45,683 bases of DNA from assembly GCA_023417665.1 (NCBI GenBank), contig JAEZFA010000249.1:1-45683 (forward strand). Direction: 5' to 3'. Below, in pieces: positions 4,397 through 20,837 of this stretch (positions are counted from its first letter, which is position 1; each line of letters opens with the position of its first letter). Made by a program: the position numbers and the translations under genes. Under the pieces are notes generated by a model. It worked only from the letters and a program-made list of their open reading frames with translations. It ran no database searches and was not told the DNA's origin. This DNA is from Pseudomonadota bacterium (GTDB lineage Bacteria; Pseudomonadota; Alphaproteobacteria; Rhizobiales; Xanthobacteraceae).

Positions 4397-4450
4397 CAAG
4401 GCTCGACAGCGCGGTGCTGCCGGGAATGTTCAACAGGGGAGACCGGTGTA

Positions 4451-5428
4451 ATGAGTGTTTCAAAAGTTTTGTTGGCGGCCGTCGCTGCGTTGTCGTTGAG
4501 CGCAGCTGGTGCATCCGCTCAGACGATGAATCTGAAGCTGGGCTTTGCGACGGCTCCGACTTCTCCTTACGGCTACGCTGCGAAGATTTTCGCGGACGAA
4601 GTCAAGGAGAAGAGTAACGGCCGGATCACGATCGAGGTGTTTCCCGGCAGCCAGCTTGGCGGCGAGCGCGAGATGCTCGAGAGCCTGCAGATAGGAACGC
4701 TGGACCTGAATTTCACTTCGCCCGCGCCGCTCACGAATTTCGTACGGGAAGCCGGTATCTTTGAGGTGCCGTTCCTCATCCGCGGCTTCGATCATGCAAA
4801 TGCAGTGCTCGACGGTCCGGTCGGTGAAGGCTTGCGCAAGAAAATCAACGAGCGCAACTTCGTCAGCCTCGGCTTCGGATATCTTGGCCCCGTGCATCTC
4901 GTGACGAACAAGCGCGGGATTGCAAAGCCCGATGACTTGAAGGGCATGAAAATCCGCACGCAGGAAAATGAGATCCATCTCATTACCTTCCGTACGCTCG
5001 GTGCATTGCCGACCCCGATGGCCTTTCCGGAACTGTTCGGCGCGCTGCAGCAGGGGGTCGTCGATGGCATGGACAATCCTTCCACGACCGTTCAGTCCGG
5101 CCGTTTCTTCCAGGCCGCGAAGTATCTCACGCTCACGGGTCATCGCTTTATCATGACGCCGATCCTTGCCTCGCCCGCCACCTGGAAGAAGCTGAGCGAA
5201 GCCGACCGCAAGATCGTCGCCGACGCGGCTCGCGTGGCGGGTGATGCGTTGCGCAAGCGGGTTCGCGAGCTCGAAGAAGAGACCGTGAAGGCGCTCGGCA
5301 CCGCTGGCATGGAGGTCGTAAAGGTTTCCGACATCGACGCCTTTGTGAAGGCCCTGCAGCCCGCTAATGCGGAATTCGAGAAGCGGTTCGGAAAGGACGT
5401 GATCGAAGCGATCCGGAATACGAAGTAG
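4451..5428 (+). CDS. dctP: TRAP transporter substrate-binding protein (DctP family)
   Basis: 325 aa. Signal peptide MSVSKVLLAAVAALSLSAAGASAQT. DctP-like body ('GSQLGGEREMLESLQIGTLD'). GGGGAG RBS 9 nt upstream. Confidence 0.9.
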   Translation: MSVSKVLLAAVAALSLSAAGASAQTMNLKLGFATAPTSPYGYAAKIFADEVKEKSNGRITIEVFPGSQLGGEREMLESLQIGTLDLNFTSPAPLTNFVREAGIFEVPFLIRGFDHANAVLDGPVGEGLRKKINERNFVSLGFGYLGPVHLVTNKRGIAKPDDLKGMKIRTQENEIHLITFRTLGALPTPMAFPELFGALQQGVVDGMDNPSTTVQSGRFFQAAKYLTLTGHRFIMTPILASPATWKKLSEADRKIVADAARVAGDALRKRVRELEEETVKALGTAGMEVVKVSDIDAFVKALQPANAEFEKRFGKDVIEAIRNTK

Positions 5429-5453
5429 CCGCATTTCGCCGGCGATACGAAAG

Positions 5454-5481
5454 GGTGGCCGCGGGAGACCTCGCGGTCACC
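5454..5481 (+). other. Intercistronic stem-loop between dctP and dctQ
   Basis: 5454-5463 (GGTGGCCGCG) pairs with 5472-5481 (CGCGGTCACC), giving 10 bp including one G.U and an 8-nt loop. A competing 7-bp stem exists between 5461-5467 (GCGGGAG) and 5485-5491 (CTCCCGC). Confidence 0.4.
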
Positions 5482-5551
5482 ACGCTCCCGCGACCAGCAA
5501 CGTGGCGTTCGGTCCGGCCTAATAGCGGCGCTTCCGGAGGAGAACATTCAG

Positions 5552-6064
5552 ATGGACAAGGCAGAACGCATCTTCGTTGCGGCAAATCGCTGGGCGCTGA
5601 TCATTACTCTGGCGGCAATGAGTGTGATCGTGTTTGCCAACGTCGCGCTTCGCTATCTTGCAAGCTACTCTTTCGTCTGGGCTGAAGAGCTTGCGCGCTA
5701 TCTGATGATCTGGATGACCTTCCTCGGCGCGGGCCTCGTGCTCCGTTTCGGAGGCCATATCGGCATCAACAGCCTTCACCACATCCTGCCGCGTCGTCTC
5801 GGTCAGTTCCTCCGCGTCGGGCTGGCCTTGCTGATGATCGTCTTCTTCGCGGCGATGGCCTGGCGGGGACTGGATTATATGCAGGTGGCGCAATACCAGA
5901 GCACGCCGGCGTTAGGGCTGCCGTTCTCGTATGTCTATGCGGTGTTTCCCGTCGGCTTCGGCTTGCTCATCGTTCACCTGCTTCTGATCATCAGACACTA
6001 TGTGCTCGATCACCGGTTCGTCGAAAGCGACGAAGTGAGCGCTGATGTTGCGTCGGCGCTCTGA
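5552..6064 (+). CDS. dctQ: TRAP transporter small permease (DctQ family)
   Basis: 170 aa with four hydrophobic segments. GGAGGA RBS. Sits between dctP and dctM. Confidence 0.85.
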   Translation: MDKAERIFVAANRWALIITLAAMSVIVFANVALRYLASYSFVWAEELARYLMIWMTFLGAGLVLRFGGHIGINSLHHILPRRLGQFLRVGLALLMIVFFAAMAWRGLDYMQVAQYQSTPALGLPFSYVYAVFPVGFGLLIVHLLLIIRHYVLDHRFVESDEVSADVASAL

Positions 6065-6073
6065 GGGCATGTC

Positions 6074-7357
6074 GTGATCCTGACGCTCGTCATTTCGATC
6101 GTGGTTCTGCTGGTGCTCGGCATGCCGGTCGCATTTGCGCTTGGCATCGCTGCCTGGCTCGCGATTCTCGTCAGCGGGCGATTTCCCGAGATCGTTATCG
6201 TAAAGGAGATGTTCTCCGGGCTTGACAGCTTTCCGCTGCTCGCCGTGCCGTTCTTCATTCTCGCGGCCGAACTGATGACCGGAGGCTCGCTAAGCGCGGT
6301 TCTTCTGCGGTTTGCCATGCAGTTTCTCGGGCATCTGCGCGGCGGGATGGGCTACGCCAACATCATGTCGCTCACGCTGTTCTCCGGGATTTCCGGCTCG
6401 GCACTCGCGGACGCCGCCGGGCCCGGCTCGATGATGGTGCGCATGATGCAGGAGGCCGGCTACAAGCGCTCCTATGCGGCGGCGCTGACGGCGGCAACGG
6501 CGGTGATCGGCCCGATCATTCCGCCGTCGATCATCATGATCATTTATGCCCTGCAGTACGAAGGCGTATCGATCATTGCGCTGTTTCTGGCAGGTTTCAT
6601 TCCCGGCCTGGTGATCGCGCTCGGCATGGCGACGGTCAATTGGCACGTATCGCGCAAGCGGGGCTATCGTTCGGACGCGGTGCGGCCCAATGCCCGCGCG
6701 ATGATCTGGAATACGATCAATGCGGTGCCCGCATTGCTTCTGCTCGTGATCATTATAGTCGGCATTCGCTCGGGCGTCTTCACGCCGACCGAAGCATCGG
6801 TGATCGCGATCTTTTACGCTCTGATCGTCGGCATGTTCTTCTACAGAACGTTGCGGCCGTCGGACCTTCCGCGAATTCTCGCAACGTCGGCCCTGCTTTC
6901 GGCTTCGGTGCTTGCGATGCTGGCGACGTCGCAGGCATTTGCCTGGGTGCTGACGATCGAGAGCGTGCCGCAGAATATTACGGCGACGATCATCGCCTGG
7001 GACCTAGGGCCGATTGCCTTCCTGATCGCCGTCAACATTCTGCTGTTGCTGTTCGGCATCTTCCTCGAACCGCTTCCGGGCGTGATGATTTTGGTCCCGA
7101 TCCTCGCGCCGATCGCGACCGGGCTCGGCGTCGATCCCGTGCATTTCGCGGTGATCGTTTGCTACAATCTTACGCTTGGGATGATCTCGCCGCCGATCGG
7201 CAGCCTGCTTTCCGTGGTCTCGATGACTGCAAAGGTGGATTTGCCCGCGCTGGTTCGGGAGCTGACGCCGTTCCTCATCATGCATCTGTTCGTGCTGGCG
7301 CTGCTGACTTTTGTCCCGGCGCTTTCGACCTGGCTGCCGCGGGTAAGCGGGTTCTGA
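6074..7357 (+). CDS. dctM: TRAP transporter large permease (DctM family)
   Basis: 427 aa polytopic membrane protein with a GTG start. Typical DctM length and N-terminus ('…GMPVAFALGIAA…'). Confidence 0.9.
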   Translation: MILTLVISIVVLLVLGMPVAFALGIAAWLAILVSGRFPEIVIVKEMFSGLDSFPLLAVPFFILAAELMTGGSLSAVLLRFAMQFLGHLRGGMGYANIMSLTLFSGISGSALADAAGPGSMMVRMMQEAGYKRSYAAALTAATAVIGPIIPPSIIMIIYALQYEGVSIIALFLAGFIPGLVIALGMATVNWHVSRKRGYRSDAVRPNARAMIWNTINAVPALLLLVIIIVGIRSGVFTPTEASVIAIFYALIVGMFFYRTLRPSDLPRILATSALLSASVLAMLATSQAFAWVLTIESVPQNITATIIAWDLGPIAFLIAVNILLLLFGIFLEPLPGVMILVPILAPIATGLGVDPVHFAVIVCYNLTLGMISPPIGSLLSVVSMTAKVDLPALVRELTPFLIMHLFVLALLTFVPALSTWLPRVSGF

Positions 7358-7432
7358 TGCTTCAATTGCAGACTGTCACGCGATGCAAGGATTTCGGCCG
7401 CTTCGCGCAATTCCAACCGACGATAAGAAAGC

Positions 7433-8587
7433 ATGCGTATGCGAATTGAAAAGGTAACGGCACGAGTCTTTTCTTTCGTTTTCGACAAAACCGCGCTGAG
7501 TTTCGGCGTCGGCAGAAACGTGAAGCGCGATTTCGTGATGGTGAAGGTGGTCGCCGAAGACGGGACGACAGGCTATGGCGAAGCACACCACGCCATGGCG
7601 CCGACTGCGATATCGGAAATCGTCAATCATAGCCTGACGCCGCTGCTGATCGGAATGGACTGCCTCGATCGCGAAGGCGTGTATGACCGCATTTACCGGT
7701 CGCAGATCCAGACACACGGCACCGGCACCGCCGCTGTCATCGCCGCGAGCGGCATCGATATCGCGCTATTCGATGTGGCGGGAAAGCTGTTGAAGCAGCC
7801 GGTCTGCGCACTCCTGGGCGGGAAGCCGAAGGCATCACAGGCTTACGCGGGCGGCTTGTCGCTCGGCTTTCAGCCGCTGGAGTCGCTCGAGCAGGAAGTG
7901 CGGCGCTATGTCGATCTCGGGTATAACGCGATCAAGCTGCGCGTCGGGCAGGACCCGCGGATCGATTCCGAACGGGTAGGGCATATCCGAAACGTGTTCG
8001 GCGACAAGCTGAAGATTGCCGTCGATGCAGCGACCCGCTACTCGGTGCTCGACGTGCAGGCAGTGGCGCGATACTGTGAGAAGTATAACGTGTGGTGGCT
8101 GGAAGAGCCTTTCACGCCCGATAACATAGATGGCTATAAAGCGATGCGCCGTTACACTTCGACGCCGCTGGCGGCAGGCGAGAACCACTTCACCAAGCAG
8201 GCATTCCGTGAGTTGTTGCGCGAAGGCGCCGTCGACATCGTGCAGGCCGATTGCACCAAAGCCGGCGGCATCACGGAGGTGAAGAAAATTGCCGATATGG
8301 CGGCCGCCTATCATGTCATGGTAGCGCCCCACACAAGCCAGAGCGTGTTGAGTGCCGCCGCAAATTTGCACCTGCTTGCGGCAATCCCGAATGGACTGGT
8401 TCACGAGGCGGACCTTGCGCCCGTCAATCCATTCCGCGACCGCCTTGCGAAGAATCCGATCGAGTTGTCAGGGGGCGGGATGGCGCCGCCGGCAGGATAC
8501 GGGCTCGGCCTGGAGATTGACGAAGCGGAGATGGAGGATTTCGACGGCGTGGCGGGCCCTTGCTATTTGCCGCCGTCGTTCAGTTGA
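7433..8587 (+). CDS. Enolase-superfamily enzyme (mandelate racemase/muconate-lactonizing subgroup, acid-sugar dehydratase-like)
   Basis: 384 aa. Metal-ligand series 'AVDAA' (Asp), 'WLEEP' (Glu), 'AAGEN' (Glu), plus 'VQADCTK' Asp and 'APHTS' His dyad. Confidence 0.85.
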   Translation: MRMRIEKVTARVFSFVFDKTALSFGVGRNVKRDFVMVKVVAEDGTTGYGEAHHAMAPTAISEIVNHSLTPLLIGMDCLDREGVYDRIYRSQIQTHGTGTAAVIAASGIDIALFDVAGKLLKQPVCALLGGKPKASQAYAGGLSLGFQPLESLEQEVRRYVDLGYNAIKLRVGQDPRIDSERVGHIRNVFGDKLKIAVDAATRYSVLDVQAVARYCEKYNVWWLEEPFTPDNIDGYKAMRRYTSTPLAAGENHFTKQAFRELLREGAVDIVQADCTKAGGITEVKKIADMAAAYHVMVAPHTSQSVLSAAANLHLLAAIPNGLVHEADLAPVNPFRDRLAKNPIELSGGGMAPPAGYGLGLEIDEAEMEDFDGVAGPCYLPPSFS

Positions 8588-8623
8588 AACTGTTTCGGCG
8601 AGACGATAATCGCCGCGTTCAGC

Positions 8624-9574
8624 TTATAGCGTCATTCCGGGAATGTGATCGTCGGTAATTCTTGCGATGCAATGGCTCGCGAATTCCTGCAGCAGTTTCG
8701 TTTTCCGGATTTGGCTCAGGAAGGCGAGCCCGATCGTCGGCCGCCGGTAATTGCCCGCGAGCGGTACCCGCACCAGCTGCTTGCCATCGAGCGAGATGTC
8801 GCATTTCGGCTGCACATGAAGGATTGCGAATCCGTAGCCGTTGCCGACCAGAGAGCGCAGCATCTCGATGTTCGGCGTGGTGATGGATACCTTGGGTTCG
8901 TATCCGTCGTTCTCGAACAATTGTAGCATTGCGTCGCTGCTGAACGGCAGGTCCAGCAAGATCATCGGTTCATTACGCACGTCTGCGAGCGTGAGCGAGA
9001 TGCGCGTCGCCAGCGGGTGATTGACCGGGAGCAGGACGTAAGGTGGGAGGCTTGCCAGCGGAATGAATTCGATTTCTCCCGGCATTGCCATCGCGGCGGG
9101 ATCGAGGCGCACGGCGTCGTAGGTGATGGCGGCGTCGATCTCGGCCGACCGCAAGCCCTCGATCAGCGATCGCTGGTTTCCTTCAATCGGCCGCAGCATC
9201 GTGTTGGGATGCTTCTGCGTGAACTCGGACAGCAATTGCGGCATGATGATGGGGGCGAGCGTGATCATGCAGCCGACGCTCAGCTTGCCGCGGACTTCTT
9301 CGGTCAGGTCGGACGCAAGATTGTAAATCGCGTCAGCCTGCGTGATCACCGCTTTTGCTTCGCGAAGGATGGTTTCTCCGATCGACGTCAGGGACAGGCC
9401 TTGCGCGTGGTGACGGAGAAACAGTTGTACGCCCAGCTCCCGCTCCAGATGCGAGATTGCGGTCGAAATCGATGGCTGGGAAATATTGATGTATTCCGAT
9501 GCCAGCTTGATGCTTCCGGTTTCCGCCGCAGCAATGAAATATTGTAGCTGTCGAAGCGAGTAACGCATTTGCAT
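8624..9574 (-). CDS. LysR-family transcriptional regulator
   Basis: 'MQMRYSLRQLQYFIAAAETGSIKLASEYINISQPSISTAISHLERELGVQLF' is a classic LysR HTH. I trimmed the start to Met13 of the 328-aa ORF; Met at 9568 is also possible. Confidence 0.85.
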   Translation of the reverse strand: MQMRYSLRQLQYFIAAAETGSIKLASEYINISQPSISTAISHLERELGVQLFLRHHAQGLSLTSIGETILREAKAVITQADAIYNLASDLTEEVRGKLSVGCMITLAPIIMPQLLSEFTQKHPNTMLRPIEGNQRSLIEGLRSAEIDAAITYDAVRLDPAAMAMPGEIEFIPLASLPPYVLLPVNHPLATRISLTLADVRNEPMILLDLPFSSDAMLQLFENDGYEPKVSITTPNIEMLRSLVGNGYGFAILHVQPKCDISLDGKQLVRVPLAGNYRRPTIGLAFLSQIRKTKLLQEFASHCIARITDDHIPGMTL

Positions 9575-9645
9575 TTCTGGTCGTCGGGGCGCACGGAGCA
9601 GCCTGCGCAATTCAAAACACAGTATAGATGCATGCAGCGACCGGA

Positions 9646-9666
9646 CGTGATGAAATTTCCGTCACG
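9646..9666. promoter_or_regulatory. LysR-box-like dyad in the divergent promoter region
   Basis: CGTGA-TGAAATTTCCG-TCACG: 5-bp inverted arms around an 11-nt AT-rich core. Related elements GAATTTCCA (9682-9690) and GGAAATTTA (9710-9718) follow at about 30-bp spacing. Confidence 0.4.
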
Positions 9667-9820
9667 CGATGCCTAATGTTTGAATTTCCAAACCAGCCGC
9701 AAAAAAAATGGAAATTTACATGCGATCTGCGCTTTCATCTAATGCAGGCACGGTCGCGGTTTCGCGCGTATCTGCAGCGTGTTCCGCAAATCCTCATACG
9801 CAGAACCAAGGGTAAGCACG

Positions 9821-11056
9821 ATGCTGCAAGATCTGTTCAAGCACGTCGAGAAGGACGAGCTGATCAGCGTTGCCTCGGAACTAATCAAGTTTCCCAGCTT
9901 CAAAAATCAGGAAACGCCGGTGGCGAAGCATCTTGAGCAGTGGTTTGGCGAGCGCGGATATGAAGTCGAGCTCGATGAAGTCGAGCCCGGCCGCTTTCAG
10001 ACCATCGCTACGCTCAAGGGCGAAGGGGGTGGCGGCAACAGCCTGATGTTCAACGCGCATATCGATATCAACTCGCTGGTGCGCGGCTGGAAGCGCGACC
10101 CGTGGCAGGCGTGGGTCGAGGGCGACAAGCTGTTCGGCCACGGCGTGCAGAACATGAAGGGCGGGCTTGCGACGATCATGGTTGCGGCGGATGCCTTCCG
10201 TAAGGCGAACGTCAAGCTCAAGGGCGATCTCGTGCTCGCCTGTGTCGTCGGCGAAACGCAGGGCGGCGAGGGCATGCATCATCTGATGAAGCGCGGTTTT
10301 CGCACCGACATGGCCGTCATCACCGAGCCTTATGGCCGCGGCAATCTGGTCACGGTGCATGCCGGCATCCTTCACATGGCGGTGCATGTTTATGGCCGCA
10401 CTGCACACATGAGCAGGCCGAAAGGCAGCATTCACGCCATCCACAAGATGGTGAAGGTGATCGAAGGGCTGAACACGGTGGATTTCACCTATACGCCGCG
10501 CGCCGACCTGCCTGACCTTCCACTTTTGAACGTCGGCAGCATCATCGGCGGCCGCGGCGACGACTACTATCTTTCCGATGCGCCCTACATTCCGGATATG
10601 TGCACGGTAATTGTCGATGTGCATTTTCTGCCCGGACAGACGGTTGAGGGTATCGTTGCCGACATTCGGCAGCGTCTCGACAAGGTCAAGGCGACGGATC
10701 CCGAAATCGATTATGCAATCGAAATCCCGCCGCCGGACTTCTTCGTCTCCCGCCGCCGGCTCGTGATGCCGCCGCTCGACGTGCCGTCGGATGCAAACAT
10801 CGTCCAGGCGATTGCGCGAAACTTCGAGAAGGTGACGGGCGAGAAAGTGCGCTCGATCGGCTCTCTGGTGCCGAACTCCTACTCGGCCTGCGATACTTCG
10901 TGGCTGTGGGACGCGGGGATTCCGTGCCTGAATTACGGGCCGACCACGGGTAACGGAGGCGGCGGTCCGGAGAACGCGTTCGTCGTGATCAGCGAGATGG
11001 AGGAGTGCGCCAAGGTGCTGATCGCGACGGCAGAGGAGGTTTGCGTCGCTGCCTAG
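9821..11056 (+). CDS. M20-family (ArgE/DapE/CPG2-like) homologue with a degenerate second metal site
   Basis: 411 aa from ATG 9821 (the ORF track extends to GTG 9779). 'NAHIDIN' (His/Asp) and 'AVITEP' (Glu) are retained. However 'GHGVQNMKGG' has Asn where the bridging Asp sits, 'VGETQGGEG' replaces 'DEE', and the C-terminal 'GGGPEN' replaces 'AHxPDE'. Confidence 0.75.
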   Translation: MLQDLFKHVEKDELISVASELIKFPSFKNQETPVAKHLEQWFGERGYEVELDEVEPGRFQTIATLKGEGGGGNSLMFNAHIDINSLVRGWKRDPWQAWVEGDKLFGHGVQNMKGGLATIMVAADAFRKANVKLKGDLVLACVVGETQGGEGMHHLMKRGFRTDMAVITEPYGRGNLVTVHAGILHMAVHVYGRTAHMSRPKGSIHAIHKMVKVIEGLNTVDFTYTPRADLPDLPLLNVGSIIGGRGDDYYLSDAPYIPDMCTVIVDVHFLPGQTVEGIVADIRQRLDKVKATDPEIDYAIEIPPPDFFVSRRRLVMPPLDVPSDANIVQAIARNFEKVTGEKVRSIGSLVPNSYSACDTSWLWDAGIPCLNYGPTTGNGGGGPENAFVVISEMEECAKVLIATAEEVCVAA

Positions 11057-11085
11057 ATTGGTGCGCCGCTGGTGGGAGCCGCAAG

Positions 11086-12396
11086 GTGAACAAGAAATCC
11101 GGAAACAGGCTGGACGTCGTTTCCATCCGGCGGGATTTGCACGCGCATCCTGAAACCGGATTTCTCGAGTATCGCACGGCATCCCGCGTCGCTTCGACCT
11201 TGAAGGAACTGGGCTGGCAGATCTCGGCCGGCCCGGAGGTGATGCGCGCCGACGCAATGATGGGGCGGCCATCGCTTCCGCGCATCGAAGCGGCGCAGAA
11301 ATATGCCGCGGAAAACGGGGCGTCGCCGGAATGGGTTTCGCGCATGCCCGATGGCCAGACCGGAATCGTTGCGGACATGAAGCGGGGCGAGGGGCCGGTG
11401 GTGGCGTTTCGCTTCGATATGGACGCGCTTCCGGTGCTGGAGGCGGCGGAAGATATTCACAAGCCGGCGGCGGGAGGATTCCGTTCGCTTCGCGACGGCG
11501 CAATGCATGCCTGCGCACATGACGGGCATACGGCCATTGGTATGTGTGTCGGTGAACGGATTGCGCTCAGCGACAGCTGGCAGGGCACGGTAAGGCTCGT
11601 TTTTCAGCCTGCCGAGGAGGGCGGCCGCGGTGCCTATCCGATGGTGAAGGCGGGCGTATTCGAGAACGTCGACTATTTCTTTGCGGCACATCTGGGCTGC
11701 AACGTGCCGAGCGGGACCATTGCCGCGCAGATTTCGGGGCATCTGTTTTCTAAAAAGTTCAACGTCTCGCTGCGGGGGGTGGCCGCGCATGCGGCGTCGG
11801 CCCCGGAGCGCGGCAGGAATGCGCTGCTCGCGGGCGCCGCCATGGTAGTCGCGCTGCATGGCATCGTCAGTCCGGCGAAAGCCCGGACGGTACTGAATGT
11901 GGGCAAGATGGTTGCCGGCACGACGCGAAATGTCGTTGCCGACAGCTGCGAACTTGAACTTGAGGTTCGCGGCGACTCCGAAGAATCGCTCGCTTACATT
12001 TCCAGGCGGATGGAAGAGATCATTGCAGGCATTGCTTCGGCTTATGGGGTCGAGTTCTCGCTCGAACTTGTCGGGCATACCATCGGCGCGAGTGCCGACG
12101 CCGGCGCGATCGAGATCGTCGCCAGGGCCGCGCATGCGACGAAGGCCGTGCAATCCGTTCTGCCGAACTGGGTATCGGGCGGCAGCGAGGATGCAACATT
12201 CATGATGCGCGCCGTGCAGGAGCGCGGCGGCGTCGCGGCTTATTTCGGCATCGGCAGCAACATCCCCGCGCCACACCACGCCGCGAACTTCGATATCGAT
12301 GAGCGTTCGCTCGCCATGGGGGTCGATGTGTTCGTCAATATTGCCGAACAGCTGCTGTCCCGCGAGCCGGACAATGCAAGGGAGCCGGTGACATGA
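11086..12396 (+). CDS. M20D-family amidohydrolase (aminoacylase/hippurate-hydrolase-like)
   Basis: GTG 11086 follows a GGGAG RBS (the ORF track extends to 11005). 'IRRDLHAHPETGF', 'MHACAHDGH', 'FQPAEEGGRGA' and 'PAPHHAANFDIDE' give the complete M20D ligand set. Confidence 0.85.
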   Translation: MNKKSGNRLDVVSIRRDLHAHPETGFLEYRTASRVASTLKELGWQISAGPEVMRADAMMGRPSLPRIEAAQKYAAENGASPEWVSRMPDGQTGIVADMKRGEGPVVAFRFDMDALPVLEAAEDIHKPAAGGFRSLRDGAMHACAHDGHTAIGMCVGERIALSDSWQGTVRLVFQPAEEGGRGAYPMVKAGVFENVDYFFAAHLGCNVPSGTIAAQISGHLFSKKFNVSLRGVAAHAASAPERGRNALLAGAAMVVALHGIVSPAKARTVLNVGKMVAGTTRNVVADSCELELEVRGDSEESLAYISRRMEEIIAGIASAYGVEFSLELVGHTIGASADAGAIEIVARAAHATKAVQSVLPNWVSGGSEDATFMMRAVQERGGVAAYFGIGSNIPAPHHAANFDIDERSLAMGVDVFVNIAEQLLSREPDNAREPVT

Positions 12397-13091
12397 CCTA
12401 TTCGGTCGTAGCGCGCTGCGCCGAAACCGGCGCATTCGGAATTGCGATCACGTCCTCGAGCATATGCGTGCCGAGCCGTTGTGCGTGGGTCGGTCCGCTT
12501 GGCGCGGTGGTGACGCAGAACCTGACCAACCCCGGCCTGGGGCCGGCGGGCCTGCAACTGCTTCGTCAGGGAATGGGCGCGAAGGCGGTATTGACTGCGC
12601 TTATCGACGGCGATCCGTCGCCGGCCTGGCGACAGGTCGCGGTCATCGACCGCTATGACCAGATCGCCTTTCATTCGGGCGCGAAGTCGCTTCCTGCGGT
12701 CGGGGTGAGCCGCGGCAAGGAATGCTTCGCCTTCGGAAATATCCTGGCGAACAGCGACGTTCCGAAAGCGATGACGGATCGCTTCGACATGCTGGCCGGC
12801 CGCTCGCTTGCCGAGCGCTTGCTGCAGGCGCTCGAGGCGGGTCTTGATGCCGGCGGCGAAGTGGCGGATGAGCGCGCGGCCGGTCTTCACGTTTGTCAGA
12901 CTTATGACTGGCCGGTCGTGGATCTGCGTGTCGACTGGCATCCCGACCCGATCGTAAAACTTCGCGAAATCTGGACGGAGTATGAACCGCAAGCGCACCT
13001 TTTCGCGCTGCGCGCCAGCGCCCCCGAGGAAGCCGCGCTTCTGAAAGAGTCCGCCGCCCTCGGCTTGATCCAGTCCGGAAGAAAAACATGA
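12393..13091 (+). CDS. DUF1028-family protein (Ntn-hydrolase fold, function unknown)
   Basis: 232 aa. N-terminal 'MTYSVVARCAETGAFGIAITSSS…GAVVTQN' matches the DUF1028 start (Thr2 is the putative nucleophile). ATGA overlaps at both ends. Confidence 0.65.
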   Translation: MTYSVVARCAETGAFGIAITSSSICVPSRCAWVGPLGAVVTQNLTNPGLGPAGLQLLRQGMGAKAVLTALIDGDPSPAWRQVAVIDRYDQIAFHSGAKSLPAVGVSRGKECFAFGNILANSDVPKAMTDRFDMLAGRSLAERLLQALEAGLDAGGEVADERAAGLHVCQTYDWPVVDLRVDWHPDPIVKLREIWTEYEPQAHLFALRASAPEEAALLKESAALGLIQSGRKT

Positions 13092-13543
13092 CGCAAGCGC
13101 CCATCATTTATTTTCTGAATGGTCCGAATACCAATCTTTACGGAGCCTCTGCCGCTTCGCACGCTCCCGGCGTTTCGTTTGCGGGGTTGCAGTCTGACTG
13201 CGAAGCGCTTGCGGAGAAGCTCGGCCTGTCGCTCAGGTTCCTGCAGTCGAACTATGAAGGCCAAATCGTCGACTGGATCCAGGAGGCGCGGGGCAGTGCG
13301 GCGGGTCTTGCGATCAATGGTGCGGGTCTGACCTATACCTCCATTGCCGTGCTCGACGCGCTGCTTGCGTTCGACAAGCCCATTCTTGAAGTGCACATGA
13401 GCAATATCTGGAAGCGCGAGCCGTTTCGCCACCATTCCTACATATCGCGTGCGGCAACGGGTGTTATCGCCGGTCTCGGCGCGAGAGGGTATATGCTCGC
13501 CATCCGTACACTGGCGGAACTGGTTGCTGACGGTGGAAAATGA
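13088..13543 (+). CDS. Type II 3-dehydroquinate dehydratase-like protein (AroQ fold) lacking the catalytic lid Arg/Tyr
   Basis: 151 aa. 'LNGPNTNL', 'QSNYEGQIVDWI', 'INGAGLTYTS' and 'EVHMSNIWKREPFRHHSY' identify the fold. The lid is 'YGASAASHAPG' instead of 'LGxRxPxxYG'. Confidence 0.8.
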   Translation: MTQAPIIYFLNGPNTNLYGASAASHAPGVSFAGLQSDCEALAEKLGLSLRFLQSNYEGQIVDWIQEARGSAAGLAINGAGLTYTSIAVLDALLAFDKPILEVHMSNIWKREPFRHHSYISRAATGVIAGLGARGYMLAIRTLAELVADGGK

Positions 13544-14478
13544 GCGCGCAGGAATACATCGTCTATTACGGCGGAATAGATAACTTCTCCGACTGGAAGT
13601 CCGCGATCGCGCGTGAAATTCCGGACGTCGCGCTGTTCCGGCATGACGAAAGCTTCGAGCCGGCGAAAGTCCGTTACGCGATGGTCTGGAAGCCGCCGCT
13701 GGGATTTTTCAGCCGCTTCAGCAATCTGATGTTCGTCGCGAACCTTGGCGCAGGGGTCGACGCAATTCTTGCCTCTCCCGATCTGCCGGAAGTGCCGATT
13801 ACGCGCATCTACGATCCGGGTATGGCGAAGCTGATGTCGAACTACATCTCCTTCGCTGTCCTGCGATACGCGCGGGATATTCCGCTTCTGGAAGCGCAGC
13901 AAAAGCAGCAGGTGTGGCAGTACAAGCGGCCGCGCAATCCGGATGAAATCCGCGTGGGCTTTCTCGGCATCGGCGAACTCGGCGCGCATGCAGCAAAGCA
14001 GCTTGCGCAGCAGGGGTTTGCCGTGACCGGATGCTCGCGCTCGGCGTCTCCGGTCGATGGCATCGAGAAAGTGTATCCGCTGGAGCGGATAAAGGAGTTT
14101 CTGAATCAAACCGAGATTCTGGTCGTCATGCTTCCGCTGACCAGGGAAACCCGCGGTCTGATCGATGCCGAACTGCTGTCCGCGCTGCCTGAGGGCGCGA
14201 AGATCATCAATCCGGCGCGCGGCGCCATCTTCAAGGAAGCCGATCTTATCGGCGCACTTCAATCCGGGCATATCGAAGCGGCGACGCTCGACACCTTCGA
14301 GGTCGAGCCGCTGCCGAAGAACAGTCCGCTATGGACGTTGCCGAATGTTCTCATTACGCCGCATCTGGCATCGCATCCGGTCCCGTCATCATCGGCGCCG
14401 CAGATTGCAGAGAACATCCGACGCATGCGCCGCGGCGATAAACTGTTGAACGAAGTGTTTCGTTCGCGCGGCTACTAG
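13540..14478 (+). CDS. ghrA: D-2-hydroxyacid dehydrogenase, glyoxylate/hydroxypyruvate reductase A-like
   Basis: 312 aa. 'YAMVWKPP', 'LGAGVD', NAD fold 'VGFLGIGELG', Arg/Glu/His triad ('NPARG', 'FEVEPLP', 'TPHLAS'). The C-terminal '…RSRGY' resembles E. coli GhrA as I recall it. Confidence 0.75.
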   Translation: MSAQEYIVYYGGIDNFSDWKSAIAREIPDVALFRHDESFEPAKVRYAMVWKPPLGFFSRFSNLMFVANLGAGVDAILASPDLPEVPITRIYDPGMAKLMSNYISFAVLRYARDIPLLEAQQKQQVWQYKRPRNPDEIRVGFLGIGELGAHAAKQLAQQGFAVTGCSRSASPVDGIEKVYPLERIKEFLNQTEILVVMLPLTRETRGLIDAELLSALPEGAKIINPARGAIFKEADLIGALQSGHIEAATLDTFEVEPLPKNSPLWTLPNVLITPHLASHPVPSSSAPQIAENIRRMRRGDKLLNEVFRSRGY

Positions 14479-14699
14479 CGAATTCAAATTTCCGATCTTC
14501 CTGCGACGCAACCTGGTTGCGGCGGACAATACTCGTTTCGTTCGATGAATTGTCGCGCGGACGGCTGCTTCTACTTTTCCAAATCACGGCATCGGCTTTG
14601 AGAATCGGGGTGCTTCACGCTTACGCGGTGAAATGCACAAATTACCGACGCTCTTCAATCGATACACGCTGCGCGCGTTTATTTACGCGAAACGCTCCT

Positions 14700-14715
14700 T
14701 GGCACGATGCTTGCT
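14700..14715 (+). promoter_or_regulatory. Sigma-54 (RpoN) -24/-12 promoter
   Basis: TTGGCACGATGCTTGCTG: TGGCACG-N4-TTGCT matches the consensus TGGCACG-N4-TTGCW at every specified position. It lies 58 nt upstream of ATG 14773, with a GGAGG RBS in between. Confidence 0.7.
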
Positions 14716-14772
14716 GATCTTGGTGTACTCGGCAGTGCGACATTCTGTGCTGCAAGCAGGTAGGAGGTTCGA

Positions 14773-15804
14773 ATGAAGATACGTGGGTTAATGTTTGCGG
14801 CAGTCATGTCGGCGATCGGGATGAGCGCCGCCGGCGCGCAGGAAAAACTCGTGATCGACAGCTGGGGCGGAAAATTCCCGAAGTCGGTAACAGAGTTCGT
14901 CGCCAAGAAGTTCAAAGCGGAAACCGGTGCCGACATCGAATTCATCACCGGCGGCACGATCGATCGCCTGAACAAAGCCAAGCTGATGAAGGCGCGCCCC
15001 GAAAGCGATATCACGTTCACGACGGCGCATGTCGGCTGGCTCTACGTCAATGACGGCCTGTTCGAGAAGCTCGACCTTTCCAAGATTCCGAACGCAAAGA
15101 ACCTCTTCAGCACGTCGAAGATCAGCGACTATCACCTCGCCGTGTACGGCTATGTCTACACGATCGCATACCGTACCGATCTGACACCGAAGGGAATTGA
15201 ATTCACGACGTGGGAAGATCTGTGGCGTCCCGAGCTGAAGGGCATGATCTCCGCGGCCGACTTCGATCCGAGCCACGTCATCAGCGTGGCGGCGCATCTC
15301 GCCGGTGCGCCCGCGGCGCATTGGGAAAAAGGCCAGGACAAGCTTCGCGCGCTGAAACCGAACTTCAAAGCGTTCTTCACGAACGATGCGAACAGCATCC
15401 AGCTGTTCTCCTCTGGTGAGACGCCGGTGCAGGTTCTTCTTTCGTCGAACGGCTATCACATGATGAAGCAGGGCGTGCCGATGAAGATCGTTGTGCCGAA
15501 GGAAGGTGCCGTGCTCGGCATCGACACCATCTCGATCACCAAGGGCACGAAGAAGGCCGACCTTGCCTACAAGTTCATTAATATCGTGCTGTCGCCCGAA
15601 GTGCAGAAGGGATGGGCGGAAAGCGAGAAGCGTAGCCCGGCCGTCTCGAACGTGAAGCTGAGCGACGAGACCGCGAAGCTGCCTGGCGTCATGACGACCG
15701 AAGAGCAGTGGAAAACCATGACGCTTCCGATGGACCAGAAGGTGCGCGCCGAAAAGCTCGGCGAATGGCGTAAGTGGTTCACCGAGAACATGATCGCGAA
15801 GTGA
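14773..15804 (+). CDS. ABC transporter substrate-binding protein (PotD/PotF-like, family 1)
   Basis: 343 aa. Signal peptide MKIRGLMFAAVMSAIGMSAAGAQE. 'IDSWGG…' start typical of polyamine/opine-type binding proteins. Confidence 0.8.
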   Translation: MKIRGLMFAAVMSAIGMSAAGAQEKLVIDSWGGKFPKSVTEFVAKKFKAETGADIEFITGGTIDRLNKAKLMKARPESDITFTTAHVGWLYVNDGLFEKLDLSKIPNAKNLFSTSKISDYHLAVYGYVYTIAYRTDLTPKGIEFTTWEDLWRPELKGMISAADFDPSHVISVAAHLAGAPAAHWEKGQDKLRALKPNFKAFFTNDANSIQLFSSGETPVQVLLSSNGYHMMKQGVPMKIVVPKEGAVLGIDTISITKGTKKADLAYKFINIVLSPEVQKGWAESEKRSPAVSNVKLSDETAKLPGVMTTEEQWKTMTLPMDQKVRAEKLGEWRKWFTENMIAK

Positions 15805-15821
15805 TCTGAACCTCAAGATTT

Positions 15822-15853
15822 GCGCGGACGGTTCCTGAGCGGGCCGTCCGCGC
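15822..15853 (+). other. Intercistronic stem-loop after the binding-protein gene
   Basis: GCGCGGACGG (15822-15831) and CCGTCCGCGC (15844-15853) form a perfect 10-bp GC-rich stem with a 12-nt loop. No U-tract follows. Confidence 0.5.
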
Positions 15854-15868
15854 GACAAGGCGGAACAC

Positions 15869-16723
15869 ATGAAGAAGCGTCACTTTATAGGATGGTTCCT
15901 TACGCCCGCGGCGATGGTCGCGATCGGCTTCGCAGCGCTCATGTTTGCGATGCTGCAGTATGGCCTTCGAGCGCATATCCCCGGGTCACTGGATGTCGGC
16001 GGCTTCACGTTCGAGAATTTCACGGTGATCGTGAAGAACTCGATCTACGCGAAGGTCTTCGTCGATACGGTAGTGATCTGCTTCTTTACCGCGCTGTTTT
16101 CCCTGCTGCTCGGCTACCCGCTGGCCTATGCGCTGGTGAATGTCGAAAGCAAGTGGATCAAGTCCGCAATCCTCATCATTTCAATCACGCCGCTCTTTCT
16201 GGGCGAGGTCGTGCGGACCTATTCCTGGATTCTCGTCCTTGGAAATTCCGGCTTCATCAATAGCGTGCTGATGGGGCTCGGGATCATCGAGCGGCCGTTT
16301 CAGCTGATGTTCACGACCACAGGCGTCACCATGGCGCTGGTGCACGTTACGCTGCCGATCGTCGTCATCATGCTTGCGGTGGCGATCGCGCATATCGATC
16401 AGGATTACAAGAAAGCGGCGACGAGTCTCGGCGCCGGCCCGGTGCGCGTTTTCATGACGGTCACGCTGCCGCTTTCCATCCCCGGAATTCTGGCCGGGAC
16501 GCTTACGGCATTCGCGACGACGTTCAGCGCGTTCGCGACGCCGAGTGTAATCGGCGGCGGCAAGATCAACATGGTGTCGAACCTGGTTTATCAGCTCGGC
16601 CTTGCCTCGTTCAATTTCCCGCTTGCGGCCAGCCTGAGCATTTCCAGCCTTGCCCTCATTCTCCTGATCGTCGGTCTCGTCGGAAGAGCATCGAAGAAGG
16701 TCGAGCGCTATGCGGAGCACTGA
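15869..16723 (+). CDS. ABC transporter permease (PotB-like)
   Basis: 284 aa polytopic protein. EAA-type loop '…DYKKAATSLGAGPVRVFMTVTLP'. Confidence 0.85.
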   Translation: MKKRHFIGWFLTPAAMVAIGFAALMFAMLQYGLRAHIPGSLDVGGFTFENFTVIVKNSIYAKVFVDTVVICFFTALFSLLLGYPLAYALVNVESKWIKSAILIISITPLFLGEVVRTYSWILVLGNSGFINSVLMGLGIIERPFQLMFTTTGVTMALVHVTLPIVVIMLAVAIAHIDQDYKKAATSLGAGPVRVFMTVTLPLSIPGILAGTLTAFATTFSAFATPSVIGGGKINMVSNLVYQLGLASFNFPLAASLSISSLALILLIVGLVGRASKKVERYAEH

Positions 16724-16726
16724 GCA

Positions 16727-17545
16727 ATGAACGCAAAAGTCATGAAGTCGCTGCCCGGATTTCTCGTCAAGGCGCTGGTTGTTGCGATTCTCGGCTTCAT
16801 TCTGATGCCGACGATCGTCGTGGCAATATCGGCGTTCGACGCGCGGGAATTTCAGGCGTTTCCGCCGAAGGACCTTTCGATTCGCTGGTTCATCAACGCA
16901 TTCGAGTACCGCGATTTCAGGATCGGTCTCGTAAACAGCGTTTATGTGATGCTGTGGACGTCTTCGCTGGCGCTGTTGATCGGCGTCGGGTTCTCGCTCG
17001 CGCTGCATCGCTACGAGTTTCAGTACAAGAGAACGCTGGAAACGATTCTGATGTCGCCGCTGATCGTGCCGCATTTCACGGTCGGGCTCGGCATTCTCAT
17101 TCTTCTGGCGCAAGCCAATCTGCCGCTCAGCTACGCCGCGGTCATCTTCTGCCATCTGGTGCTCGTGCTGCCTTACGTCATCCGGAGCATCTATGTTTCG
17201 CTGAAGAATCTGGATGGTCGCTATGAGCTTGCGGCGGCGAGTCTGGGTGCTTCGCCGCGCCGCGTGTTGTTCACGGTGACGCTGCCGCTGTTGATACCCG
17301 GCATGGTCGGCGGATGGCTGTTCGCGGCAATTCTCTCGTTCAACGAATTCACCGGTTCGCTCTTTATCACGAACCAGTCGACCCAGACGCTGCCGGTCGC
17401 GATGTACAACTATGTGCGCGAATACGCCGACCCGACGCTGGCGGCGATTGCGGTCGTCTACATCGTGATCACCGGCACGCTGCTGGTCCTTGCGAACTAC
17501 TACCTGGGTTTGGGGAAGGTGCTGAATGTCGAACAGACTCGCTGA
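16727..17545 (+). CDS. ABC transporter permease (PotC-like)
   Basis: 272 aa. '…YELAAASLGASPRRVLFTVTLPLL' EAA loop. Confidence 0.85.
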   Translation: MNAKVMKSLPGFLVKALVVAILGFILMPTIVVAISAFDAREFQAFPPKDLSIRWFINAFEYRDFRIGLVNSVYVMLWTSSLALLIGVGFSLALHRYEFQYKRTLETILMSPLIVPHFTVGLGILILLAQANLPLSYAAVIFCHLVLVLPYVIRSIYVSLKNLDGRYELAAASLGASPRRVLFTVTLPLLIPGMVGGWLFAAILSFNEFTGSLFITNQSTQTLPVAMYNYVREYADPTLAAIAVVYIVITGTLLVLANYYLGLGKVLNVEQTR

Positions 17546-18659
17546 TAATCTCAAGGAGAGCGCGATTGTGAAGGCTTCGATGACGCCGGAGACGATTGCC
17601 GTAAAGCTGGATGCCGTCACCAAACGCTTCGGCGATACGGTCGCGCTCCACGAGGCTTGGCTCAAAGTACGTTCGGGCGAGTTCATGACGCTGCTCGGCC
17701 CTTCGGGCTGCGGCAAGACGACGATTCTCAACCTCGTCGCCGGCTTTCTCGAGTGCGATGCCGGTGAAATCTTCATCAGCGGCGAACTGGTGACGGAAAC
17801 GCCTACCTACAAGCGCGAGATCGGGATCGTCTTCCAGAACTACTCGCTGTTCCCGCACATGACCGTCGAGAGTAATGTCGGATACGGGTTGCGCGCGCGC
17901 GGCGTGAAGGCCGAGGAAATCGCGGTCCGTGTCAACGAGGCGCTGGAGCTGGTCAAGCTGTCGGGCTTCGAGAAGCGCAAGCCCAAGCAACTGTCCGGCG
18001 GCCAGCAGCAACGCGTGGCGCTCGCACGCGCGCTGGTGCTGCGGCCCAAGGTGCTCCTGCTCGACGAGCCGTTCTCCGCGCTCGACAAGAATCTGCGCGC
18101 CTCGATGCAGATCGAGCTCAAGGAGATCCAGAGCAAGCTCGGCGTGACCACGATCTTCGTAACCCACGACCAGAGCGAAGCGCTCAGCATGTCGGACCGG
18201 ATCGCGGTGATGTCGGCCGGCAAAATCCGGCAGATCGGTACGCCGATGGAGGTCTATGAGCATCCGTCGGATGAGTTCGTCGCTTCGTTCATCGGCGATG
18301 TGAACGTTTTTGCCGGCCGCGTTGGCGAAGCGGGTCGCATTGCTATCGGCGAGACCGAGATCGCGCTGCCGGAAGCGAAGCGCGGTTCGACCAGCGGCAG
18401 TTCGGTGAGGCTGTTCGCCCGCCCGGAACATCTCCGGCTTGTGAACGCGGAGATGGCGGGTTCGCTGCAGGCGACCGTGCAGACGCTGGTCTATCAGGGA
18501 AGTCACATCGACGTGCATCTGGCCTGCGCAAGTGCCGAGAGCGGCCGAATAATGGTGCGCGTTCCGTCCGCCGCCGTGAGCGAGAAGCTCGCAGTGGGCG
18601 CGCCGGTAGGGCTGCAGTTCGTGCCTGAGAAGCTGAACATCTTCAACATGAGTGAATGA
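17526..18659 (+). CDS. ABC transporter ATP-binding protein (PotA-like, with C-terminal TOBE-like domain)
   Basis: Walker A 'GPSGCGKTT', signature 'LSGGQQQRVALARAL', Walker B 'LLLDEPFSALD'. The start is ambiguous: ATG 17526, GTG 17568 (AAGGAG RBS 9 nt upstream) or ATG 17580. Confidence 0.85.
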   Translation: MSNRLADNLKESAIVKASMTPETIAVKLDAVTKRFGDTVALHEAWLKVRSGEFMTLLGPSGCGKTTILNLVAGFLECDAGEIFISGELVTETPTYKREIGIVFQNYSLFPHMTVESNVGYGLRARGVKAEEIAVRVNEALELVKLSGFEKRKPKQLSGGQQQRVALARALVLRPKVLLLDEPFSALDKNLRASMQIELKEIQSKLGVTTIFVTHDQSEALSMSDRIAVMSAGKIRQIGTPMEVYEHPSDEFVASFIGDVNVFAGRVGEAGRIAIGETEIALPEAKRGSTSGSSVRLFARPEHLRLVNAEMAGSLQATVQTLVYQGSHIDVHLACASAESGRIMVRVPSAAVSEKLAVGAPVGLQFVPEKLNIFNMSE

Positions 18660-18660
18660 A

Positions 18661-19269
18661 ATGAAATTATTCTACGCGATCACGTCGCCTTACGTCAGAA
18701 AGGTGATGGTTACGGCTTACGAGCACGGGCTTACCGACCGCATCGAACTGATCAAGATGCCGGCGAAGGATCCGCTGGAGCCGTCCATTGCGACTAGCCA
18801 CAACCCGCTCGGAAAAATCCCGACGCTGATTACCGACGACGGCGAGGCGATCTACGACAGCGTCGTGATCTGCGAATATCTCGATGGGCTTGCTCCGGAA
18901 GCGAAGCGGCTGTTTCCCGGCGGCGAGGAGAAAATCCCTTCACTCGTGCTGCATGCGCTCGCCAACGGCATGATCGATGCGGGCATGGCGGCGCGCGCCG
19001 ATGAAGTCGTCAGGCCGGAAGCTTTTCGCTGGGAAGGCGGCAAGAACTACCAGATGGAGAAGATGAGGCTCAGCCTCAAGGAGATCGAGAGCAGGGTCGA
19101 TATGTTCGACGAGGCGCTCTGCATCGGCAAGATCACCGTCGCCTGCGGGCTCGGCTGGTTCGATTTCCGCTTCCCGGGGTTCGACTGGCGCGCGGATTTT
19201 CCGCTGACCGCACAGTGGTTTGAATCGGTGAGCATGCGTCCGTCGATGCAGGCAACGCGGCCGGCGTAA
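18661..19269 (+). CDS. Glutathione S-transferase (YibF-like)
   Basis: 'MKLFYAITSPYVRKVMV…' resembles the YibF 'MKL…YTSPFVRK' N-terminus. 'IPTLITDDGEAIYDSVVICEYL' is the GSH-binding region. ATG lies 1 nt after the ATPase stop. Confidence 0.8.
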   Translation: MKLFYAITSPYVRKVMVTAYEHGLTDRIELIKMPAKDPLEPSIATSHNPLGKIPTLITDDGEAIYDSVVICEYLDGLAPEAKRLFPGGEEKIPSLVLHALANGMIDAGMAARADEVVRPEAFRWEGGKNYQMEKMRLSLKEIESRVDMFDEALCIGKITVACGLGWFDFRFPGFDWRADFPLTAQWFESVSMRPSMQATRPA

Positions 19270-19320
19270 CGGGCAGAATTTTCCGAACTAGCCCGAAGGA
19301 AAATGCGATTTTACTTGGTC

Positions 19321-19332
19321 GGAAAATTTTCC
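19321..19332. promoter_or_regulatory. Perfect 12-bp palindrome GGAAAATTTTCC upstream of the HpaB-like gene
   Basis: Read directly. Related half-sites GAATTTTCC (19276-19284) and GGAAAAT (19298-19304) lie just upstream. Confidence 0.35.
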
Positions 19333-19393
19333 TTCATTCGTAATGCAGTTTTGCCCGCGGCACGCGGGAGTAATTTGAAGGATAGCGCAGGCG

Positions 19394-20833: not shown

Positions 20834-20837
20834 TGCC

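Follow-up and report, generated by a model that had tools for sequence, protein, structure and literature searches.

A LysR-linked gene set with M20, DUF1028, AroQ-like and GhrA-like proteins from Xanthobacteraceae as a probable variant of a widespread proteobacterial catabolic cluster

We analysed five genes lying on the + strand between positions 9821 and 14478 of contig JAEZFA010000249.1 from a Xanthobacteraceae bacterium, a 45.7-kb stretch of DNA that we call the window. The genes encode two M20-family metallohydrolases (M20A and M20D), a DUF1028 protein, a paralogue of type II dehydroquinases (AroQL) and a D-2-hydroxyacid dehydrogenase of the GHRA branch (GhrAL). An original prediction, made from the sequence of the window, had proposed them as an undescribed C-N cleavage pathway. 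Our results suggest, with a probability of about 0.6, that the locus is a lineage-specific variant of a widespread gene cluster that would import and degrade an organic compound containing nitrogen. Its most likely role is to scavenge nitrogen from a compound with amide linkages. The five genes would most likely be the front end of a LysR-controlled catabolic locus of ~13 kb (9821-22627). The cluster is a catabolic one of a familiar general kind, built from known superfamilies in a combination that is undescribed.

The evidence that carries this reading is the conservation of the neighbourhood. An AroQL query against one genome per species returned 361 matching stretches; the best 80 of these, taken with 10-kb flanks, were joined by three plasmid loci to give a set of 83 loci, which was searched by tblastn with the proteins of the window and of a related cluster from Klebsiella IncF plasmids. 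The resulting counts are raw, with the relatedness of the carriers left in. GhrAL accompanied AroQL in 77 of the 83 loci, the ATPase of an ATP-binding cassette (ABC) importer in 76 and its substrate-binding protein (SBP) in 65, an orthologue of the LysR regulator in 75, DUF1028 and a RidA-family protein in 69 each, and an ArgE-type M20 enzyme in 58. Somewhat lower counts were obtained for a glutathione S-transferase (GST, 52/83), for an FMO-like flavoprotein (Pyr_redox_3) and an MDR-type quinone reductase (50/83 each), and for HpaB (27/83, orthologues with 56-65% identity) and a flavin mononucleotide (FMN)-dependent 2-hydroxy-acid oxidase (27/83). Most loci encode a flavin monooxygenase, either FMO-like or HpaB, usually with a flavin reductase after it. 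When all open reading frames (ORFs) of the 83 loci were clustered de novo, with shadow ORFs removed, the sole extra partner to emerge was the flavin reductase beside HpaB, a family that directly follows HpaB in Bradyrhizobium and Tardiphaga loci.

The carriers belong to three proteobacterial classes, with Bradyrhizobium, Tardiphaga, Methylobacterium, Rhizobium, Roseibium and Paracoccus among the alphaproteobacteria, Variovorax, Cupriavidus, Bordetella and Achromobacter among the betaproteobacteria, and Klebsiella and E. coli plasmids, Pantoea, Pseudomonas and Marinobacter among the gammaproteobacteria. Gene order and strand differ between these taxa throughout the 83 loci, which argues for a functional and not merely inherited linkage. 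Two adjacencies recur within the shuffled order: in 76 of 77 loci, AroQL is immediately followed by GhrAL, its obligate partner, and DUF1028 follows RidA in 48 of 65. The absence of the neighbourhood from related genomes had been named beforehand as refuting; we found it strongly conserved across the three classes despite its changing order, and this conserved co-occurrence supports the earlier view of a functionally linked gene set without a described pathway.

Two main versions of the cluster could be distinguished, in which the oxygenases often substitute for each other, with both types present at some loci. The FMO version, found in beta- and gammaproteobacteria, combines the FMO-like enzyme with the quinone reductase and GST, sometimes joined by the FMN oxidase, and the HpaB version, mostly alphaproteobacterial, combines HpaB with its flavin reductase and mostly lacks GST and the MDR reductase. 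The hydrolase and oxygenase set (HpaB, DUF1028, M20A, FMO, RidA) was also found without AroQL and GhrAL. One such locus (L093) holds LysR, an ABC system, HpaB (62% identity), DUF1028, M20A (63%), FMO and RidA, another (L092) holds DUF1028, ArgE, M20A, LysR, an ABC system and FMO, and both use a paralogous PotD-fold transporter with ~27% identity. Conversely, some Rhizobium loci contain AroQL, GhrAL, LysR and the ABC system, with or without the FMO-like gene, and lack DUF1028, RidA and M20. As judged from gene content, the cluster is composed of four putative modules: importer and regulator, oxygenase, C-N hydrolase, and AroQL-GhrAL.

Conjugative IncFIB/IncFII plasmids of Klebsiella carry the cluster in a 13-kb version. 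In the K. pneumoniae plasmid pUCLAOXA232-6.X (NZ_CP012572.1, 2758-16065), the order is RidA, DUF1028, ArgE, ABC ATPase, quinone reductase, GST, AroQL and GhrAL, followed by LysR, SBP, two permeases, the FMO-like enzyme and the FMN oxidase. The window proteins share 46% identity with their plasmid counterparts for LysR, 46% for DUF1028, 63% for AroQL, 52% for GhrAL, 58% for SBP, 58% for the ATPase and 46% for GST. AroQL gave a tblastn match in 106 Klebsiella plasmid records, with 62.9% identity in every match listed, and among E. coli complete genomes the Klebsiella-type cluster was found in one plasmid only. A search of plasmids for DNA nearly identical to the window returned nothing beyond a 267-bp Variovorax match.

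The importer downstream of the five genes, which had been suggested earlier as a PotD-like system with a sigma-54 promoter, turned out to be part of the same conserved cluster. Its SBP matches the SBP_bac_8/6/1/11 families, its ATPase ABC_tran and TOBE_2, and its permeases BPD_transp_1; the closest structure to the SBP is an unliganded Clostridium SBP (4EDP). A perfect match to the sigma-54 motif TGGCAC-N5-TTGC, with its GG-N10-GC core, lies 59 nt before the SBP start codon; no second match occurs in the 45.7 kb, where 0.08 matches are expected. In 18 other loci, the gene for the SBP orthologue is preceded by the same motif; 17 of these loci are HpaB-type, the one exception being a Cupriavidus locus (L038). 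The presence of this promoter on the importer of HpaB-type, mostly alphaproteobacterial loci points to nitrogen control. The divergent region between LysR and M20A holds several 8-nt A/T-rich inverted repeats (AAATTTCC/GGAAATTT, AATTTCCA/TGGAAATT and AATTCAAA/TTTGAATT) that could be LysR-binding boxes, and no match to the sigma-70 consensus was found within it. Scans for sigma-70 promoters and terminators over 8500-23500 gave counts no better than those of shuffled sequence, so operon boundaries are not definable by such scans.

Searches with hidden Markov models (Pfam-type domains and NCBIfam/TIGR models with curated cut-offs) recovered every family that the original prediction had named, and closer inspection of the C-N hydrolases changed how two of them are to be read. 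M20A is an atypical M20 protein that resembles NaaA rather than an M20D-type deacylase. It falls below the ArgE/DapE subfamily cut-off (TIGR01910, 201.1 vs 217.6 bits), and its best solved relative is 5-nitroanthranilate aminohydrolase (NaaA), a remote match (E 1e-21 over a 397-residue alignment, only 78 bits). M20A departs from the usual di-metal ligand set (His, bridging Asp, Glu-Glu, Glu, His): it has Asn for the bridging Asp (GHGVQNMKG), Glu-Thr (GET) for Glu-Glu, and no C-terminal His. Among 120 homologues, the motif GHG[VI]QNMKG is kept in 115 and the Asn in 119. Homologues with 62-71% identity range from Hyphomicrobiales to Dehalococcoidia and repeatedly stand beside DUF1028, which suggests a substrate that differs from that of NaaA and is widespread.

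Two side observations concern M20A. In Dehalococcoidia-type (Chloroflexi) metagenome contigs (L090 and L091, 8001-10032), M20A (63% identity) is directly followed by DUF1028, with luciferase-like monooxygenases and CoA-transferases in the surroundings; the pair crosses phyla with unusually high sequence conservation. In a Hyphomicrobiales metagenome-assembled genome (L089, JBIOEJ010000048.1), positions 5474-6715 encode a 413-residue protein of three tandem RidA (Ribonuc_L-PSP) repeats, an unusual RidA architecture, located between an M20 gene and an arginase-family gene and two genes upstream of the M20A orthologue.

M20D passes its family model (TIGR01891, 291.5 vs 153.75 bits), and the metal motif MHACAHDGH (type motif MHACGHD) is seen in its translation. 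It is absent from all 80 genome loci in tblastn searches, and because its metagenome relatives reach at most 56% identity and never occur alongside the cluster, it is not a core component and appears to be a lineage-specific recruit. The pair of M20 paralogues named in the original prediction does not generalise to the core of the cluster, since M20D accompanies the cluster only in the window's own small clade. The M28 aminopeptidase further downstream likewise had no tblastn match in the 83 loci and appears to be a lineage-specific addition. DUF1028 matches PF06267 with 205 bits, and its Thr2, the presumed N-terminal nucleophile, is invariant in 21 homologues. Its AlphaFold2 model (pLDDT 80.8) has 2IMH as the best fold match (TM 0.71), followed by proteasome beta subunits, HslV and Anbu, and the fold search returned no characterised enzyme beyond the generic Ntn/proteasome fold. 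From Thr2 and these fold matches, DUF1028 is predicted to be an Ntn hydrolase of the N-terminal Thr type that lacks characterised relatives. We know of no function for the family, although a crystal structure has been available since 2006 (2IMH).

The version of the cluster in the window lacks RidA, the ArgE-type M20, the quinone reductase, the FMO-like enzyme and the FMN oxidase, and carries M20A, M20D and M28 in their place. The M20A-M20D-DUF1028-AroQL arrangement recurs in its closest relative, contig L086 (82% identity for AroQL, 89% for M20A, 75% for M20D and 82% for DUF1028), which indicates that the five-gene arrangement is real and limited to a small clade; in addition, the same proteins and gene calls for the five genes are on record on two independent metagenome contigs. 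The replacement of RidA and the ArgE-type M20, together with the loss of a lid Tyr from AroQL described below, suggests adaptation to a peptide-like or otherwise modified substrate. The boundaries of 9821-14478 proposed before are too narrow: GST, HpaB and the flavin reductase are conserved cluster members in other loci, so the functional unit, which also takes in M28, would reach ~22627.

AroQL covers 136 of the 138 positions of PF01220 (DHquinase_II, 148.9 bits) and stays below the aroQ equivalog cut-off (TIGR01088, 147.6 vs 169.85 bits). Its best identity in the species-representative genome set is 68%, and a search with the protein returned many homologues with 60-70% identity that share the lid sequence NGPNANLYGLDxxGxYG. 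The lid, described earlier as missing, is of full length and shows no gap against the S. coelicolor enzyme, whose numbering we use; what differs is the catalytic Arg23, here Ser, and Tyr28, here Ala. Across 120 subfamily members, Asn16, Asn79, Asp92, Glu104, His106, Ser108, Arg113 and Arg117 are retained, and a subfamily signature of Asp23, Tyr85, Met107 and Trp111 emerged: position 23 is Asp rather than Arg in 108, position 85 Tyr rather than His in all 120, position 107 Met rather than Ile in 118, and position 111 Trp rather than His in 117. Tyr28 is kept in 115 members and is Ala in exactly three, which make up the window clade. Arg23 and Tyr28 are essential to dehydroquinase catalysis (structure 1GTZ is the R23A mutant of the S. 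coelicolor enzyme), and since they are changed here, AroQL is probably a paralogue that has neofunctionalised and whose pocket is dehydroquinate-like; its copy in the window may have diverged further or be inactive. To our knowledge, the type II dehydroquinase fold is considered to serve essentially one function.

Its partner GhrAL scores 153 bits against PF02826, and its best NCBIfam model is GhrA (NF012013), with a score far under the cut-off (210 vs 403 bits). The closest structures are 4XA8 and 5VG6, uncharacterised proteins from Xanthobacter (E 1e-105), after which the top named structures are GhrA entries, and the catalytic Arg, Glu and His motifs are visible as ARG, EVEP and TPH. The 2-oxo-acid step that had been envisaged with GhrA is plausible, in view of this placement in the GHRA branch and of the FMN-dependent 2-hydroxy-acid oxidase in 27 loci.

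In the following scheme, we infer from these data what class of substrate is used, in which order the steps proceed, which reactions AroQL and GhrAL catalyse and that NtrC acts as activator. An amide-linked, nitrogen-containing organic acid would be imported under nitrogen limitation, and its amide or amine bonds would be hydrolysed by M20A, M20D, M28 and DUF1028, freeing the nitrogen; elsewhere, the ArgE-type M20, DUF1028 and RidA would form the nitrogen-releasing set. HpaB and its flavin reductase would then oxygenate the freed core, after which GhrAL, and the FMN oxidase where present, would interconvert 2-oxo and 2-hydroxy acids, and AroQL, through its retained His106/Glu104 core, would carry out an enolate-based beta-elimination or dehydration of a dehydroquinate-like keto-carboxylate. 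GST, assisted elsewhere by the quinone/enone reductase, would handle a reactive enone or quinone intermediate. The specific chemistry assigned to AroQL, an enolate-type elimination, is tentative. It is also conceivable, though doubtful, that the cluster encodes an undescribed and widespread nitrogen-scavenging pathway with two new enzyme functions, in which AroQL and its partner GhrAL would eliminate a substituent, possibly C-N or C-S, from a keto-acid, and DUF1028 would release nitrogen together with its M20 partner and RidA. As a label, the undescribed C-N cleavage pathway of the original prediction is fair, and its stress on two M20s, a lid-less AroQ and a stoichiometric complex is not borne out.

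Several observations weigh against this reading of the locus. Of 62 SBP upstream regions, 20 contain the sigma-54 element, and two of these 20 are copies of the window; FMO-type, mainly beta- and gammaproteobacterial loci hardly ever have it. The ORFs of the window include no Sigma54_activat-type enhancer-binding protein, which would imply a global activator such as NtrC, encoded outside the window, and hence nitrogen control. An amine as ligand is a guess, because the SBP is devoid of the polyamine-contact motifs of PotD. A 294-nt gap with a separate promoter element splits 9821-14478 from 14773-22627. Finally, M20A, without three canonical metal ligands, could be non-catalytic, and the loss of Tyr28 could mean that the AroQL copy of the window is catalytically dead.

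The alternative that survives best, which we consider rather unlikely, is that the cluster serves detoxification or resistance by importing or intercepting a toxic electrophilic amino-acid or peptide antimetabolite (an enone, epoxide or quinone), which the peptidases, GST, the enone/quinone reductase and GhrAL would neutralise. The frequency of GST and of the MDR quinone/enone reductase across the loci would fit such a function, as would the location on conjugative IncF plasmids of Klebsiella, the extra peptidases M20D and M28 of the window variant, and the capacity of RidA-family proteins to quench reactive enamines and imines. However, a high-affinity ABC importer of its own, under a nitrogen-type sigma-54 promoter, suits scavenging better, HpaB-type loci mostly do without GST and the MDR reductase, and the conserved genes of the cluster include none for efflux or target protection.

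A stoichiometric complex, in which the four translationally coupled proteins would channel an intermediate, had been deduced from the gene overlaps and is quite unlikely. The ATGA start/stop overlaps at 12393, 13088 and 13540 were confirmed, AroQL and GhrAL are constantly adjacent, and the dodecameric type II dehydroquinases could provide a scaffold. Against this, no more than 2 of 67 loci have DUF1028 as the gene immediately before AroQL, DUF1028 is often encoded on the opposite strand or at a distance of kilobases, the spacing between AroQL and GhrAL outside the window is mostly 15-60 nt, and M20D is missing from the 80 genome loci. In L086, the M20D/DUF1028 overlap is the sole one of the three retained, so the overlap chain is not a conserved feature, and four-base overlaps are commonplace in bacterial operons. 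Among these elements, the AroQL-GhrAL pair alone is constant.

Catabolism of hydroaromatic compounds of the quinate/shikimate type, with AroQL as a true 3-dehydroquinate dehydratase, GhrAL providing or removing the keto group and the hydrolases as bystanders, is very improbable. AroQL does have the DHquinase_II domain, passes the type II dehydroquinase subfamily model NF003807 (149.6 vs 130) and retains Asn79, Asp92, Ser108, Arg113 and Arg117 along with His106/Glu104. Nevertheless, it misses the aroQ equivalog cut-off, Arg23 and His85 are replaced across the subfamily as described above, and the window clade has lost Tyr28, the catalytic base. Moreover, no dehydroshikimate dehydratase, quinate/shikimate dehydrogenase or protocatechuate genes are found among the conserved neighbours, and the enterobacterial hosts of the plasmids already possess the type I dehydroquinase AroD. 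A chance juxtaposition of housekeeping genes (argE/dapE-like deacylases, aroQ and ghrA), as the PGAP-style names on related records would have it, is effectively refuted by the conserved co-occurrence in three proteobacterial classes with shuffled order and by the recurrent adjacencies; the missed aroQ, GhrA and ArgE/DapE cut-offs and the altered catalytic residues of AroQL and M20A also speak against it.

Six described pathways were also considered as identities for the cluster and not adopted, namely those for ureides/allantoate, p-aminobenzoyl-glutamate (AbgAB), ectoine (DoeB2), opines, histamine and quinate: their equivalog models scored far below cut-off, and their characteristic partner genes are absent from the conserved neighbourhood.

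The features of the locus are collected in Table 1. All five ORFs of 9821-14478 were found as predicted, as were the divergent LysR gene and the closeness of the upstream M20 gene, M20A, which is separated from M20D by an intergenic gap of 29 nt. The best structure for the GST is 4IBP.

Table 1. Coordinates of the predicted features of the locus in the window
Feature	Position	Strand	Remarks
LysR-type regulator	8624-9574	-	316 aa from ATG at 9574; HTH_1 + LysR_substrate
Divergent control region	9575-9820	.	Short A/T-rich inverted repeats, candidate LysR boxes
M20A, atypical NaaA-like M20 metallohydrolase	9821-11056	+	411 aa; Peptidase_M20 + M20_dimer
M20D amidohydrolase	11086-12396	+	436 aa, GTG start; TIGR01891, Peptidase_M20 + M20_dimer
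DUF1028, Ntn-hydrolase-fold protein	12393-13091	+	232 aa; PF06267
AroQL, type II dehydroquinase paralogue	13088-13543	+	151 aa; PF01220 (DHquinase_II)
GhrAL, GHRA-branch D-2-hydroxyacid dehydrogenase	13540-14478	+	312 aa; 2-Hacid_dh_C (PF02826)
Sigma-54 -24/-12 promoter element TGGCACGATGCTTGC	14700-14714	+	Motif match
PotD-fold ABC importer	14773-18659	+	SBP, two permeases, ATPase
Importer subunits	SBP 14773-15804; permeases 15869-16723, 16727-17545; ATPase 17526-18659	+	
YibF-like glutathione S-transferase	18661-19269	+	GST_N_2, GST_N_3; ORF opens with GTG 18652, likely start ATG 18661
HpaB-family two-component flavin monooxygenase, oxygenase subunit	19394-20833	+	HpaB_N + HpaB
M28 aminopeptidase with PA domain	20838-22133	+	Peptidase_M28 + PA
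Flavin reductase, HpaB partner	22133-22627	+	Flavin_Reduct, 119 bits

The remainder of the window looks like an island of C-N hydrolases and importers. Upstream, 612-8587 is a separate catabolic unit composed of hydantoinase/oxoprolinase A and B (612-2702 and 2699-4396), a TRAP transporter DctPQM (4451-7357) and an enolase-superfamily MR_MLE protein (7433-8587). The last of these has matches in only 2 of the 83 AroQL loci, at 27-28% identity, so the unit is not conserved with the cluster. Downstream, 22712-25453 encodes a MarR regulator (- strand), a second flavin reductase (23379-23957) and a second HpaB-family oxygenase (23978-25453); two HpaB copies are also present in some Bradyrhizobium loci. 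Genes for the catabolism of nitrogen compounds are also dense in 25759-34212 and 43497-44573: a Liv-type ABC system, a DUF2848 protein (FAA-hydrolase-like, 30464-31147), an amidase-signature enzyme (31161-32468), an Amidohydro_1 enzyme (32821-34212), an NMT1-type ABC system, two further LysR genes and a nitrilase-superfamily CN_hydrolase (43497-44573).

In the open-access literature, to which our search was confined, we found no description of the cluster, of a function for DUF1028 or of the AroQ-like subfamily, and at least three enzyme subfamilies of the cluster are functionally orphan. The current annotations of its genes as 'type II 3-dehydroquinate dehydratase', 'glyoxylate/hydroxypyruvate reductase A' and 'acetylornithine deacetylase' are probably wrong, as these names are homology transfers that the residue analysis contradicts. 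DUF1028 and the dehydroquinase-derived AroQL now have a tight and testable genomic context, which extends over the 361 matches in species-representative genomes and ~100 Klebsiella plasmid records, and a residue signature is available for the AroQ-like subfamily. If the proposed pathway is correct, it would deorphanise DUF1028, AroQL and the NaaA-like M20 subfamily and would explain a metabolic module on Klebsiella IncF plasmids. Several carriers are genetically tractable, so that the substrate could be found by nitrogen-source screens or by ligand screens of the binding protein.

Comparison with known systems places each component near a characterised protein and apart from it. NaaA (PDB 5K8M-5K8P) is an M20 enzyme that carries out a hydrolytic deamination by nucleophilic aromatic substitution with a substrate-coordinated divalent metal (PMC9814641). 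Like NaaA, M20A has Asn at the position of the bridging Asp, one Glu where Glu-Glu is usual and no C-terminal His, but the similarity is remote and nitroaromatic pathway genes were not found in the window. AroQL resembles the type II dehydratases of S. coelicolor (1D0I/1GTZ) and M. tuberculosis (1H05) in fold, length and sequence (~45% identity), whereas in the 83 loci its companion is a GhrA-like dehydrogenase, and genes for shikimate or quinate metabolism never accompany it. GhrAL belongs to the same 2HADH branch as GhrA (YcdW) of E. coli and Salmonella, with a full-length alignment to 3KBO (E 6e-57), yet it is far nearer to 4XA8 and 5VG6 and is genomically tied to AroQL. The SBP has the fold of the PotD/PotF family (cluster-D; PotD match with E 1e-20), within an importer of two permeases and one ATPase (TOBE), but at the polyamine-contact motifs known from the PotD literature, WTEY is changed to WGGK, IWNG to LLSS and FWMD to LGID.

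For the locus as a whole, the closest known analogy is the Rut system of E. coli (rutABCDEFG), which scavenges nitrogen from pyrimidines. As proposed here, that locus is under sigma-54/NtrC nitrogen control, and it combines a two-component flavin monooxygenase and its reductase with a nitrogen-releasing amidohydrolase and the RidA-family protein RutC, while a further reductase clears the reactive carbon skeleton in the form of a hydroxy acid. The likeness is one of organisation, with no family-level homology except for RidA and the flavin reductase: the oxygenase is HpaB or FMO-like here and the luciferase-like RutA in Rut, and the hydrolases are Ntn (DUF1028) and M20 proteins here and isochorismatase-like in Rut. 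The cluster described here further differs in its ABC transporter, its LysR-type regulator and its additional AroQ-like and GhrA-like enzymes.

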